Shown here in pieces: positions 11,760 to 15,409 of a stretch of DNA of 42,441 nt. The notes beneath the pieces were generated by a model that had not been told where the DNA came from, ran no database searches, and saw nothing but the letters and a program-made list of their open reading frames with translations. The DNA comes from Escherichia coli (GTDB lineage Bacteria; Pseudomonadota; Gammaproteobacteria; Enterobacterales; Enterobacteriaceae): assembly GCF_003334385.1 (NCBI RefSeq), contig NZ_QOWN01000037.1; one strand, given 5' to 3'. The stretch's first letter is position 1, and each line of letters opens with the position of its first letter. The position numbers were made by a program, and so were the translations under genes.

Positions 11760-12056
11760 ATGCCAGCGCCTCTGTATGGTGCGGACGACGCGCGCCGCTG
11801 TTCCGGCAATTCCGTATCGGAGGTGCTGGATAAATTCAGAAAAAACTACGACCTGATAATGTCGCTACCGCAGGAAACGAAAGAGGAAAAGGAATTTCGC
11901 CATTGTATATGGCTTGCAGAGAAAGAAGAACGCGAGCGAATTTACCAGACATCAATCCGACCATTCCGCAAAGCCACATATACCAACTTCCCTGAATATA
12001 TCGACCCGCGCCTGCGTAATTACCGCTCACGCTATGGCGCTATCAGTAATGACTGA
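11760..12056 (+). CDS. Hypothetical early protein (98 aa)
   Basis: AAGGA RBS; no recognised motif. Confidence 0.45.
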
Positions 12057-12066
12057 GGAATTTACC

Positions 12067-12231
12067 ATGAGAGGACTTGCATACAATCCCGGCATTCTTC
12101 CGGCAGAAATGATTATTCGCCAACGCGTAAAGCCAATGCCATCGAGAGAGGAATTGCTAAAGAGAAATTCTTTTCCGTCAGTGAATCAAAACAAATATCT
12201 GAATGCGATGTGGCGGAGTGGGAAGAAATGA
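12067..12231 (+). CDS. Hypothetical small early protein (54 aa)
   Basis: Internal start MRGLAYNPG of track ORF 11914..12231 with GAGGAA RBS; its stop overlaps the next ATG. Confidence 0.35.
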
Positions 12232-12710
12232 AACAAATGACACTAATTGAGATGGATGGATTTCTGAAAGGTAAATGCATCCCAAGTGATTTAAAGGTTA
12301 ACGAAACAAACGCTGAATATCTGGTGCGTAAATTTGCTGAAGCGGAGGCCAAGTGCGCGGCGCTGGCAGCGGAGAATGCGGGGCTGAAGTCTGGCGCTAT
12401 GGGCGAAATCAAGGTTATCAACCGTGGAGGGCAGGCATATTGCGTAAAAGATGGAGTGCAAGTTAATCCCATGTATGCAAGAGGGTGGAATGACTATCGC
12501 GCAAAGTCTCTGCAATCAGACACCCCAGCCACCGATGCTTTCCTGGCTGAAGTACGGGCGCAGGGGGTAGAGATGTACGCAGATAACCTCGACAACGGAG
12601 CAGACGACGCAGAACGAGGTGGTTTTGATGATGCCGTTAAGTTTCTACGCAGTGAAGCGTCTGGTGTACGTTTGTTCGCCGACCAGCTTCGCAAAGGAGG
12701 CAACCAGTGA
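12228..12710 (+). CDS. Hypothetical early protein (160 aa), possibly Ead/Ea22-like N-terminal type
   Basis: ATGA overlap with the upstream ORF; coiled-coil-like [18 protein letters not shown] segment. Confidence 0.45.
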
Positions 12711-13252
12711 GTGTAACGGTTGAAAAGATTGATGTGTTGTCATTCGTTATAACCGGTGCAGAGCGACTAGATCCGGTTCGAGTGATGATTGAAAACTACG
12801 AACCTGGTAAGGGAAGAATCACCATCACCTGCTACGGAAAAGCGTGGACTGCGGCTTGGTTTGCTATGGGCGGTGATGATGTGCAGACGTTCATTAAGCG
12901 GGTCAGCAACGAGTATCTAATCGGCTATTTCGACCCTCAACTGCGAAGCACGGTCGACGATGACAACGATGCAAATCTGCTTTTCGTGAAGTCAGAAATC
13001 ATAAAGTTACGAAGAGAGAGAGAAATCGACGCGGTACAGGCTCGCGAAATGTGGGACGAGGCGGAAAACGCCGATGACGTAAAAGAAAGCTGCTGTTTTT
13101 TCGGTGTCGGTAACAAACTGCTGAATCTCTTTGGTGATGATCCGTGGTATGCCGACTGGCCAACGGCACCAAACCCGAAATACCAGTATCTGGAACGCGT
13201 ACTTAATGCAGTGAGAGACGGTCTTAAGCAAATAGAGAAGGTGGAACCATGA
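12707..13252 (+). CDS. Hypothetical early protein (181 aa)
   Basis: GTG start overlapping the upstream stop (GTGA); no recognised motif. Confidence 0.45.
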   Translation: MSVTVEKIDVLSFVITGAERLDPVRVMIENYEPGKGRITITCYGKAWTAAWFAMGGDDVQTFIKRVSNEYLIGYFDPQLRSTVDDDNDANLLFVKSEIIKLRREREIDAVQAREMWDEAENADDVKESCCFFGVGNKLLNLFGDDPWYADWPTAPNPKYQYLERVLNAVRDGLKQIEKVEP

Positions 13253-13548
13253 CTGTATGTCTTATTGATAAACGTCGACGTGGGCAACAAATACCATCTG
13301 TTGAAATGCCGAATCACACATGGTTTTGCGTACTTGATATCGATGGTATGGATACGTTGATCGACACTCGTCATTACTGCGATACCGCAACAACTACTCC
13401 TGCAAAAGCAAAGAAAATGGCTGCTCTGATAGAAAACTGGACTCCACCTGATGGTTGGTGCAATGGGAATGATCGAGATTGGCACGAAAAAATGAAGGGC
13501 TATATCTGCGATTTTTTACGTAAATGCAACGGATTCAGGGTGATGTGA
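13249..13548 (+). CDS. Hypothetical Cys-containing early protein (99 aa)
   Basis: ATGA overlap with the upstream gene. Confidence 0.45.
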   Translation: MTVCLIDKRRRGQQIPSVEMPNHTWFCVLDIDGMDTLIDTRHYCDTATTTPAKAKKMAALIENWTPPDGWCNGNDRDWHEKMKGYICDFLRKCNGFRVM

Positions 13549-13549
13549 C

Positions 13550-14521
13550 ATGAGCAAGATTGACTATCAGGCACTGCGTGAAAAGGCAGAGAAAGCAACG
13601 TGTGGTGTGTGGTCGCTCGAATATGGAGAGGAGAGATTTGATGCTGGTGATGCGCTAATTCATCGTGAAGTTGTTGGATATCTTCCCATTTGCAGAATTG
13701 AAGGAGCGCATCCTGAAAGCGGTTTCGATGAAGATTTCCAAATGGAACAGCAGGCCAATGCTGAATTCATCGCCGCAGCCAATCCAGCTGCCGTGCTGGC
13801 ATTACTGGATGAACGGGAAAGAAACCAGCAATACATCAAACGCCGCGACCAGGAGAACGAGGATATTGCGCTAACGGTAGGGAAGCTGCTAATCGAAAAC
13901 GGCCGGCTTGTTGCCGATACGCTACGCCACTTAGCTGATAACGAAATCGACTCTGATTATTTTGCTATCACCTCAACGAATGAGAACGGTACTGAAATTG
14001 ATCATGAGATGGCTATTACCGATTACGCACTGCAAGCTGCCGGAACTGTAGACGAATTGGTTGCGGCTCTGGAATCCGCAGAGAAGCGCATAGCAGAACT
14101 GGAAGCCGAACCTGTAAGCCAAACTTACAAGTTGCCAGTTAATACACCTTGCCAAGATGCGCCAGCCCATATCTGGCTGCAAACAGCTGGAGTATGGCCA
14201 GAAGATGGCGAGTTAAGCGAATTAACGTGGTGCAGCCACAATCAACACCATGATGACACGCTATATGTTCGAGCTGACCTTGTGAATGGCAACTATCCGG
14301 CAACTCCGGATAGTTGGATAAGCTGTAGTGAGCGAATGCCAGATGATGGTCAGCACGTAATTATTTTATGTGATGGCGCATTCGTTCTTTATGCGCAATA
14401 TCGAGACAGTGAGTTTTTTGATGTTGTCCGCAATGGTGAGGAGTTCTTCGAAACACAGAGCCGCAATGTAACCCACTGGATGCATCTACCAGAACCGCCG
14501 CAGGAGGTTAACCGTGGCTAA
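13550..14521 (+). CDS. Ead/Ea22-like early protein (323 aa)
   Basis: Large acidic protein in the ea region; family assignment from memory, unverified. Confidence 0.45.
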   Translation: MSKIDYQALREKAEKATCGVWSLEYGEERFDAGDALIHREVVGYLPICRIEGAHPESGFDEDFQMEQQANAEFIAAANPAAVLALLDERERNQQYIKRRDQENEDIALTVGKLLIENGRLVADTLRHLADNEIDSDYFAITSTNENGTEIDHEMAITDYALQAAGTVDELVAALESAEKRIAELEAEPVSQTYKLPVNTPCQDAPAHIWLQTAGVWPEDGELSELTWCSHNQHHDDTLYVRADLVNGNYPATPDSWISCSERMPDDGQHVIILCDGAFVLYAQYRDSEFFDVVRNGEEFFETQSRNVTHWMHLPEPPQEVNRG

Positions 14522-14798
14522 CCTTCAACTGGCAGTTAACGGTGAATATTTCGACCAGATGAAGTCAGGCGAGAAAACGGAAGAGTATCGCCTGTGTAAT
14601 GACTACTGGAATAAGCGAATTATGTTCCGGGAGTATGACCGCCTGATTATCACAAAGGGATATCCGAAGCGCGACGACTTCAGTCGCAGAATTGATGTCC
14701 CGTATGACGGATATGAAATCAAGACAATCACACATCCCCACTTCGGCGATAACCCGGTAAAGGTGTTCGCGATAAAGGTAAATATCGGCACTGAATAA
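14514..14798 (+). CDS. ASCH-domain-like protein
   Basis: 94 aa containing GEKTEEYR, which fits the ASCH GxKxxExR motif; GTG start overlapping the upstream stop. Confidence 0.45.
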   Translation: MANLQLAVNGEYFDQMKSGEKTEEYRLCNDYWNKRIMFREYDRLIITKGYPKRDDFSRRIDVPYDGYEIKTITHPHFGDNPVKVFAIKVNIGTE

Positions 14799-15064
14799 CA
14801 ATCCTCGCACTCGCGGGGATTTCTTTTATCTGAACTCGCTACGGCGAGTTTTGTTTTATGGAGATGATAAATGCACTTCCGAGTCACAGGTGAATGGAAT
14901 GGAGAGCCATTCAACAGAGTTATCGAAGCGGAGAACATCAACGACTGCTATGACCACTGGATGCTGTGGGCGCAGATAGCACATGCAGACGTAACCAATA
15001 TTCGAATTGAAGAACTGAAAGAACACCAAGCCGCCTGATGGCAGTTTTTTATTGGAGACAAGAA

Positions 15065-15409
15065 ATGTCAGATTTTGCTATGAAGGTTTTGAAATGGCAA
15101 TCGACTGGCGATGTCGGCATCAGTAGCGCAACTCTTGCCTCAATCGCATGTGGCCTGAAAAAGAATATCTATGGTCATCACTTCGGCGCTCCCCATGACG
15201 CAGCCGATTTCCGACGATGCGTTGCACTTGTTGAGCAGATTCCAGAAATCAGAGATTCATTCGACAAGGTTGCAAAGCGCGCTCCGGCATTCAAAGGAAT
15301 CCTCAACGAATGGGATTCCCTCGTTGCTCTGTTGAAGTCTGAAATGAAGATACACGGAAACAAAGCACCAGAGACTTACAGAAGAATCAGCGAGCTACGC
15401 AAGGACTAA
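15065..15409 (+). CDS. Hypothetical protein upstream of xis (114 aa)
   Basis: Internal ATG (MSDFAMKVLKWQ...) of track ORF 15038..15409; no recognised motif. Confidence 0.4.
   Translation: MSDFAMKVLKWQSTGDVGISSATLASIACGLKKNIYGHHFGAPHDAADFRRCVALVEQIPEIRDSFDKVAKRAPAFKGILNEWDSLVALLKSEMKIHGNKAPETYRRISELRKD

Follow-up and report, generated by a model that had tools for sequence, protein, structure and literature searches.

What is encoded by the compact run of early genes that lies upstream of xis in a prophage of Escherichia coli, and does it include factors that turn the host cell or its defences to the advantage of the phage? The run occupies positions 11760-15409 of a 42,441-nucleotide stretch of contig NZ_QOWN01000037.1 (hereafter the window, meaning this whole stretch). 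An earlier interpretation made from the DNA letters alone (the sequence-only reading) had described it as nine tightly coupled accessory genes of a mosaic lambdoid early region, most of them devoid of recognisable motifs and any of them a possible host-takeover or anti-defence factor. We find that the block is a newly shuffled, ordinary equivalent of the exo-xis region of lambda and of the ea region of P22, built from common phage families. It is probably an exo-xis equivalent in the style of P22 and HK022, made up of non-essential genes in the distal part of the leftward early (PL) operon that a mosaic lambdoid prophage carries. This finding matters little as it stands; the region nevertheless holds several phage families that are very common and unstudied.

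Nine genes in a seven-plus-two arrangement

Nine consecutive co-directional open reading frames (ORFs), here numbered G1 to G9, lie on the + strand of the block, within exactly the outer coordinates proposed previously. Only ~109 of its 3650 bases are non-coding (~97% coding) and its GC content is unremarkable. All nine predicted proteins match PHROG families end to end (E-values from 1e-38 to 1e-87), the exact proteins of all nine ORFs already have public database entries, the largest cluster having 1623 members, and codon comparisons with related loci without exception give a ratio of nonsynonymous to synonymous differences (pN/pS) below 1, most of them on the basis of few differences. Thus, the nine ORFs are to be regarded as real genes and not as chance reading frames. 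Three long antisense ORFs (112-182 amino acids) gave no family match, and none of them was retained as a gene. The view that most products lack recognisable motifs is not sustained, as seven families are recognised at the Pfam level (Abc2, DUF2737, Phage_phiTE_072, DUF7739, Ead_Ea22, DUF551, and ASCH). The sequence-only reading had also held that membership of all ORFs in established families, together with a lack of phenotype on expression or deletion, would speak against its host-takeover proposal; the half of this statement that concerns families is what we observe.

The tight coupling described previously applies to five of the eight junctions. Stop and start codons overlap as ATGA between G2 and G3 and between G4 and G5, and as GTGA between G3 and G4; G5 and G6 are separated by a single nucleotide (TGAcATG), and G6 and G7 overlap by 8 nucleotides (GTGGCTAA). 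Two further junctions are probably short spacers, of 10 nucleotides between G1 and G2 and of 26 nucleotides between G8 and G9. Indeed, the DUF2737 and PHROG 1117 profiles and the 54-residue form of G2, which is found on at least 1000 contigs, all begin at the ATG at 12067, with a GAGG Shine-Dalgarno motif 8-9 nucleotides upstream. Similarly, the PHROG 1229 profile begins at residue 10 of the long form of G9, that is, like the 114-residue form, at 15065, with GGAG 8-9 nucleotides upstream. The upstream start codons that overlaps would require (12049 for a 60-residue G2 and 15038 for a 123-residue G9) have no ribosome-binding site. No true TAATG stop/start overlap was found at any junction of the block; the letters TAATG do occur at 12047-12051, but this TAA is in another frame.

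The remaining junction, between G7 and G8, is a 72-nucleotide spacer in which a terminator scan and RNA folding identify two tandem intrinsic-terminator-like hairpins on the + strand (14800-14821 and 14832-14851), each followed by a U-run. The segment 14800-14851 folds at -27.3 kcal/mol (z = -4.26), and none of 200 shuffled sequences folds as well. The block is thus better described as seven plus two genes than as nine uniformly coupled ones. Two further hairpins occur at 15425-15494, in the interval between G9 and xis, and the second of these (GCCGCATCAATGCGGC followed by TTTTTC) is terminator-like; this region folds no better than shuffled sequence (z = -1.27).

Such bracketing of G8-G9 by hairpins (14800-14851 and 15425-15494) is what one might expect if part of the block, and these two genes in particular, were expressed in the lysogen as morons that benefit the host, for example through superinfection exclusion or stress tolerance. 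In addition, the block encodes a DUF551 protein (see below), and proteins of this kind, among them YfdS of prophage CPS-53, have been linked to oxidative-stress tolerance (cited in PMC10834534). However, no sigma-70-like promoter is predicted before G8 or anywhere on the + strand of the block, and a scan of 9500-17000 returned three such sites in total against 12 expected by chance. Neither the GC content nor the PADLOC scan sets any gene of the block apart, all genes share the orientation of the PL operon, G8-G9 are the same in the free phages HK022 and Gally, and the downstream hairpin region is no better than its shuffled counterparts, as given above. We therefore consider the moron hypothesis highly improbable, and favour the assignment of all nine genes to the PL operon.

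Position in the early left operon of a lambdoid prophage

By its gene content, the block belongs to the leftward early operon, which lies on the + strand of the window, of a lambdoid prophage integrated at the lambda attachment site. On the upstream side there are a cI-type repressor gene (6244-6960), a predicted PL-like promoter with operator-like repeats (7493-7521), a nutL-like site read from the sequence as a boxA-like element (GCTCTTTAACA, 7568-7578) and a boxB-like hairpin (7591-7608), and a gene for an N-like antiterminator (7940-8212). Closer to the block, the lambda cIII thermoregulator RNA of Rfam matches at 10216-10274 (88.5 bits), and genes for Kil and an Arf-like peptide precede those for an Erf-like annealing protein (10748-11353, + strand; PHROG 155, 1.6e-57) and a phage SSB (11353-11736, + strand; PHROG 44, 1.8e-28). 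On the downstream side, the ORFs of xis (15527-15745) and int (15723-16793), both on the + strand, correspond to a homologous stretch annotated as excisionase and integrase in phages 720R6 and HK022, and are followed by an exact copy of the lambda att core (GCTTTTTTATACTAA, 16867-16881; 0 expected by chance). Around the block, cI, N, erf, xis, int, and att are all intact. These features support an early placement in the PL operon, upstream of xis, and agree with the mosaic lambdoid early region recognised by the sequence-only reading.

Upon infection, or when the prophage is induced, the N-like protein would modify RNA polymerase, which would then read from PL through the internal terminators, pass kil-arf-erf-ssb and then the nine genes, and continue toward xis-int. 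G2 to G7 would be translated as a coupled train, by means of their overlapping or abutting stop and start codons. As G8 and G9 lie behind the terminator pair, they would depend most on antitermination.

Abc2 and the boundary of the recombination module

G1 (11760-12056) encodes a 98-residue protein that matches Pfam Anti-RecBCD_p2 (PF11043) at 1e-59 over model positions 1-97 of 97, and PHROG 656 at 1.6e-55. It is ~91% identical to P22 Abc2 in PDB entry 8b1t (1.8e-56; cryo-electron microscopy structures 8b1t/8b1u). In Abc2, residues 3-66 form the RecC-binding helical region and Pro68 engages the active site of the host protein PpiB (PMC9836394). G1 has two substitutions within residues 3-66 (A11/P and S65/A) and retains P68, and its pN/pS ranges from 0.29 to 0.57. 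We thus identify G1 by homology as a P22-type Abc2, a RecBCD-hijacking protein that would bind RecC here as well.

Since Arf, Erf, and SSB are encoded directly upstream, G1 is part of the recombination module. The sequence-only reading had placed the whole cassette between this module and xis, which is correct on the xis side; at the other end the cassette begins inside the module, so that the boundary was drawn one gene early. The prophage is thus equipped for P22-style RecBCD hijacking (Abc2, Erf, and SSB) and not for the Gam strategy of lambda. Abc2 is the sole established counter-defence or host-takeover function in the block. Its identity had gone unrecognised; the earlier expectation of such a factor holds for G1, while nothing found here points that way for G2 to G9. 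Preprints tie RecBCD antagonism to Gabija and OLD-type defences.

Mosaic origin and closest relatives

Of the 5426 complete E. coli genomes, 3903 contain parts of the block, as do 590 phage records, and none of these carries 80% or more of it in one place. Homology breaks at 12066-12070, ~13591, 14465-14474, and 14794, at or near gene junctions. The segment 12066-13591 (G2 to G5) is 98.9% identical to strain KS-NP019, 11700-12341 and 14474-15800 are 96% and 95% identical to HK022, respectively, and 13551-13889 and 14101-14344 match Gally/LF82 at 97% and 96%. This pattern is, on sequence comparison, classic lambdoid mosaicism and nothing unusual. Recombination at conserved junctions would have joined P22-like, HK022, Gally/LF82, and other prophage pieces, and the products other than Abc2 would be interchangeable accessory modules.

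Three known systems are relevant for comparison. With the exo-xis region of lambda and Shiga toxin (Stx) phages (orf60a, orf63, orf61, orf73, ea22, and ea8.5), the block shares its position between recombination genes and xis in the PL operon, its early, non-essential character, a fixed place with mosaic content, and an Ead/Ea22 coiled-coil protein with a swappable C-terminal domain. The two differ in their recombination modules, which comprise Erf, SSB, and Abc2 here and Exo, Bet, and Gam there. Nuclear magnetic resonance structures have been reported for the C-terminal domain of lambda Ea22, for Orf63, and for two Ea8.5 homologues, but a search of PDB sequences at E<=1 returned Abc2 only and no homologue of these three, and no TraR-like domain as in Orf73 was detected in the Pfam scan of the block.

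The early-left region of P22 (arf-erf-abc1-abc2 and the ea genes) is similar in its Abc2, which is the 91% identical protein described above, in the Arf-like and Erf genes upstream, and in the annotations of P22-like phages, where EaE, EaD, and EaA are the names given to homologues of G3 and of the two halves of G6. It differs in several respects: the prophage studied here has no abc1 and carries an SSB gene in the interval from erf to abc2, a single ORF combines EaD-type with EaA-type parts, and a lambda-type set of xis, int, and att is present. In addition, most P22-like phage records lack G4 and G5. Finally, the left operon of HK022 corresponds to the block at 11700-12341 (abc2 and the DUF2737 gene) and at 14474-15800 (G7, G8, G9, and xis), at 95-96% identity, whereas HK022 has other sequence in place of the central 2.1 kb, which contain G4 and G5 in full and most of both G3 and G6; a different Ea22-like gene is present there. 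The closest kin are thus, as far as sequence identity tells, P22 in the abc2-erf part and HK022 at both ends.

A fusion of Ead/Ea22 and DUF551

The large acidic Ead/Ea22-like protein noticed previously is the product of G6 (13550-14521; 323 residues, isoelectric point 4.4), which matches Pfam Ead_Ea22 (PF13935) at 3.4e-24 on residues 2-161 and DUF551 at 7e-19 on residues 255-318. Ea22 proteins consist of a conserved N-terminal part, a coiled coil, and a variable, portable C-terminal domain (PMC7093339, PMC10834534). They are tetrameric and pro-lysogenic, and the 'V2' variant of Stx phages carries DUF551 (PMC10834534, PMC7093339). G6 fits this architecture in its domain order. By analogy with Ea22 of lambda and Stx phages, it would act as an Ea22-type coiled-coil scaffold with a swapped DUF551 end domain, biasing the phage toward lysogeny.

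G6 is itself a mosaic. Its residues 1-113 correspond to the ead gene of Gally/LF82 (97% DNA identity), the coiled-coil segment to about residue 186 corresponds to the ead gene of another strain (94%), and the sequence from 'VSQTYK' onward matches the EaA-type DUF551 protein of Gally/LF82 in its C-terminal part, with another allele of the DUF551 core. LF82 encodes ead and DUF551 in two neighbouring genes; in G6 they are joined at AELEAEP/VSQTYK. No complete E. coli genome carries 80% of the G6 DNA in one place. The RefSeq protein WP_434081685.1 (170 residues) is recorded on a contig of exactly 42,441 bp, the length of the window, and in that record the Ead/Ea22 half at the N-terminus probably has no annotation or is flagged as a fragment. 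The G6 frame was called as 191 or 323 residues by other submitters.

This raises the question of whether the block is a partly eroded remnant, above all in G6, whose fusion would then stem from a deletion taking out the last part of ead and the first part of the DUF551 gene and would have no function of its own. Separate ead (with its KGE end) and DUF551 genes in LF82/Gally, and a join at a short LEAEP-type microhomology, are consistent with such an event, as are the rarity of G6, the RefSeq protein that covers only its last 170 residues, and the many truncated or chimeric relatives of G9 in E. coli assemblies. On the other hand, the 323-codon frame is open, its start lies one nucleotide past the stop of G5, and its 3' end retains the GGAGG and GTG of the next gene. 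The combination of Ead_Ea22 and DUF551 is moreover a described natural variant of Ea22 in Stx phages, and the other genes of the block are intact and under purifying selection, as cI, N, erf, xis, int, and att around it are intact. Decay is thus quite improbable as an explanation.

Several points do weigh against the reading of the block as an exo-xis equivalent in a PL operon. The exact 323-residue G6 protein occurs on four contigs only, and WP_434081685.1 corresponds only to the last 170 residues of its frame, so that G6 may have arisen through decay and not be a functional Ea22 variant. Among the exo-xis proteins of lambda, a homologue in the block was detected only for the N-terminal region of Ea22 (in the PDB and Pfam searches given above); the likeness to the lambda region is positional and architectural and not gene-by-gene. 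In addition, the promoter, nut site, and terminators are sequence predictions, and the functions suggested here for G2 to G5 and G7 to G9 derive from analogy or fold class alone.

The 3' end of G6 is informative in another respect. A K/R-G-E C-terminal tripeptide has been reported for all Ea22 proteins. LF82 Ead ends in KGE, whereas G6 ends in NRG, without the final E; the corresponding junctions are GGAGGTTAACCGTGGCTAA in the window (14490-14521) and AAAGGAGAGTGAtATG in LF82. Ead/Ea22 genes stop at the point occupied by the ribosome-binding site and start codon of the following gene. As the tripeptide overlaps the ribosome-binding site of the downstream gene, it may not be a protein feature. 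K/RGE may instead reflect the embedded Shine-Dalgarno sequence of a translationally coupled downstream gene, together with a conserved recombination joint.

A small protein of predicted ASCH fold

The downstream gene in question, G7 (14514-14798; GTG start, 94 residues), encodes a small stand-alone protein in which the ASCH-like GxKxxExR motif noted previously is indeed present, as G19-E-K21-T-E-E24-Y-R26. Residues G19, K21, E24, and R26 are invariant in 20 homologues. Pfam ASCH (PF04266) reached an independent E-value of 0.19 at best (residues 7-28), none of the 20 homologues matched it at E<=0.001, and a profile search against PDB sequences returned no ASCH protein. The predicted structure is a PUA-like beta-barrel, the best structural matches of which are ASCH proteins, and we assign an ASCH fold to G7 with moderate confidence on the basis of this model. 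Compared with ASCH proteins such as TRIP4/ASC-1, ZmASCH, and YqfB, G7 has the octapeptide and the predicted barrel in common, but falls below the Pfam threshold and is, with 94 residues, among the shortest.

YqfB-type N4-acetylcytidine amidohydrolases use a catalytic triad Lys21-Thr24-Glu74 (PMC9599836). By motif register, position 24 is Glu in G7, as in all 20 homologues (the equivalence of Glu74 being left aside). As Thr24 is replaced by Glu, G7 should not be an enzyme of this type. It would most likely bind RNA or a modified nucleotide, as a non-YqfB ASCH protein.

The phiTE_072 family and the anti-defence hypothesis

Could one or more of G2 to G9 inhibit a bacterial immune system, the mosaicism of the block then reflecting an arms race with host defences? 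Known inhibitors of bacterial immunity include Ocr, Ral, Gam, and the Tad/Gad proteins. The block is early, non-essential, and highly mosaic, it encodes small acidic or basic proteins, and Abc2 next door is a RecBCD antagonist, all of which would suit an anti-defence island. The most relevant gene in this respect is G4 (12707-13252), which starts with GTG and encodes an acidic protein of 181 residues. Its relatives are named 'phiTE_072 family protein' in RefSeq, and Phage_phiTE_072 (PF26211) is a precomputed hit on a 100% identical protein and on 119 other homologues among those listed. The namesake, phiTE_072 itself, matches at 41% identity over 97% of G4 (tblastn).

An exhaustive search at E<=0.001 gave 1105 representative clusters (50% identity) for this family, and a relative is encoded in 51 of 50,697 phage records. 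Phages carrying it comprise a lambdoid coliphage, SSU5-type phage-plasmids, Certrevirus and related large myophages, and phages of Pseudomonas, Vibrio, and Pseudoalteromonas. The family extends from lambdoid prophages through SSU5-type phage-plasmids to large virulent phages of Pectobacterium, Cronobacter, Escherichia, Pseudomonas, and Vibrio. Such conservation across phage-plasmids and across temperate as well as large virulent phages of several genera is a typical trait of genes for general host manipulation, and is consistent with an anti-defence role. Between G4 and its counterpart in phage SSU5, which is the clearest case of purifying selection, there are 56 synonymous and 23 nonsynonymous differences (pN/pS 0.11).

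An AlphaFold2 model of G4 (built on a 105-sequence alignment) reached a predicted local distance difference test score (pLDDT) of 95.8 and a predicted template modelling score (pTM) of 0.86, and folds in this model as a four-stranded N-terminal sheet followed by helices. A fold search returned neither a solved structural relative nor a characterised anti-defence protein. The only nearly invariant residues of the family are hydrophobic or aromatic ones, one Asp, and one Gly, which would fit a binding protein better than an enzyme. Pfam searches of 105 relatives and of 25 longer ones revealed no informative fusion; scattered helix-turn-helix hits occurred in single sequences only and probably represent fused neighbouring ORFs.

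The genomic surroundings of the family are also relevant. In unrelated temperate phages, genes of the Phage_phiTE_072 family again have RecT/SSB on one side and int on the other, and relatives of G4 frequently lie close to genes for DNA methyltransferases (MT-A70 in three loci, Dam and C5 in one, and SSU5_095). This setting, with its orphan methyltransferases, is weakly suggestive of an early protective neighbourhood and would favour an anti-defence role. However, this neighbourhood is loose. A conserved partner gene was sought and rejected, as the neighbours vary in phiTE, SSU5, Pseudomonas phage 8P, and metagenomic prophages, and the DUF7739 gene is downstream of G4 only in E. coli. The trio G3-G4-G5 is intact in 12 of the 5426 complete E. 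coli genomes, and in phage EC.W1-9 it lies just downstream of replication genes and not beside a recombination module.

Other evidence argues against an anti-defence island. None of G2 to G9 matched a characterised anti-defence protein among PDB sequences, and the profiles of known anti-phage defence systems in PADLOC-DB gave 0 matches for the nine proteins at E<=0.01; an NCBIfam scan of the nine proteins gave nothing usable. The literature on these families yielded only the pro-lysogenic effect of Ea22 and notes on YfdS and oxidative stress, and a literature search for DUF2737, DUF7739, and the phiTE_072 family found no functional report. An anti-defence role of G2 to G9 is thus possible and unsupported, and we regard the island hypothesis as unlikely. 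A related reading, for which the odds are longer still, is that G4 is a widespread early phage protein whose fold had not been solved before and which disables an immune system or a conserved factor of the host, its E. coli copy travelling as the rare module G3-G4-G5. Whichever of these applies, the phiTE_072-family protein is the best lead for new biology at this locus, since it combines a wide distribution, strong purifying selection, and a confident predicted fold with no structural or functional precedent. Under the preferred assignment to an accessory region of the PL operon, G4 would most likely be a small binder of host proteins, as would G2, G5, G8, and G9.

The remaining accessory genes

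Immediately upstream of G4, G3 (12228-12710; 160 residues) matches PHROG 614 at 7e-54, has homologues annotated 'EaE', and is 100% identical in strain KS-NP019. Residues 35-160 of G3 also match positions 111-239 of the PHROG 368 profile, positions 1-104 of which match residues 1-116 of G6. This two-part match indicates that some phages attach the C-terminal domain of G3 to an Ead/Ea22 N-terminus, and G3 would thus carry another portable end domain. G3 and G6 were considered as paralogues, and this was rejected: they have no pairwise similarity and share only their membership in a composite PHROG.

G2 (12067-12231) encodes a basic protein of 54 residues with the Pfam domain DUF2737 (1.2e-28) and shows 0-2 nonsynonymous against 2-3 synonymous codon differences. 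G5 (13249-13548; 99 residues), which contains six Cys and is the Cys-containing protein mentioned by the sequence-only reading, matches Pfam DUF7739 at 8e-19 and PHROG 1239 at 5e-55, with a pN/pS of 0.17-0.41.

Behind the terminator pair, G8 (14871-15038; 55 residues) matches PHROG 676 at 3.7e-40 over its full length. The exact protein is found on at least 1000 contigs, and two comparisons gave 0 nonsynonymous against 2-3 synonymous differences. The HK022 copy of G8 aligns with a gap of one base, which points to a frameshift or to a difference in sequencing. G9 (15065-15409; 114 residues, PHROG 1229) has only 57 homologues, nearly all from Escherichia and a few from Cronobacter, none of which has a Pfam domain of its own, and its pN/pS is 0.11-0.28. 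No Pfam domain was detected in the scan of G8 and G9 (precomputed Pfam hits of relatives being checked for G9 only), and both would qualify on these searches as narrow-range orphans.

A function as dATP/dGTP pyrophosphohydrolase (PF04447) was considered for G9 and rejected, as the PF04447-bearing 'homologues' are chimeras that share only the ends of G9. In other E. coli prophages, a gene for a DUF550/MazZ-like dATP/dGTP pyrophosphohydrolase occupies the slot of G9, and the chimeras join at short common strings (GIS... and ...ALLKSEMK...). The last ~27 codons before xis would thus be a common recombination joint. Together, the G6 fusion and the G9/DUF550 chimeras show evolution by recombination at conserved gene ends.

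Other features of the prophage

Several features elsewhere in the window deserve mention. Directly after the cI-type repressor gene, 6980-7348 (+ strand) encodes a 122-residue protein with several hydrophobic segments (PHROG 6534). It occupies the position of rexA/rexB in lambda, has no PADLOC match, and is a candidate for a lysogen-expressed exclusion gene. A ~39-codon ORF with a hydrophobic core, read by eye at 7781-7900 (+ strand; MLDIMTNPILGGLVTTFAICFGF...), lies between the nutL-like site and the N-like gene. A SieB-like superinfection-exclusion gene (8237-8773, - strand; PHROG 1301, 9e-94) is located inside the PL operon just after the N-like gene, with a strong terminator-like hairpin at 8227-8200.

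Further along the PL operon, upstream of kil, 8984-9607 (+ strand; PHROG 1965) encodes a protein of 207 residues; a RefSeq entry under the name 'Nmad5 family putative nucleotide modification protein' shares 98% identity with it. At the cIII thermoregulator, the cIII-like reading frame within ORF 10157-10354 begins MQYAIAGWPVAG, and its C-terminal end presumably differs from that of lambda CIII. Finally, in host DNA past the end of the prophage, the nucleoid-associated RNA naRNA4 of Rfam, which derives from repetitive extragenic palindromic (REP) sequences, matches just above its gathering score at 18280-18350 (- strand).

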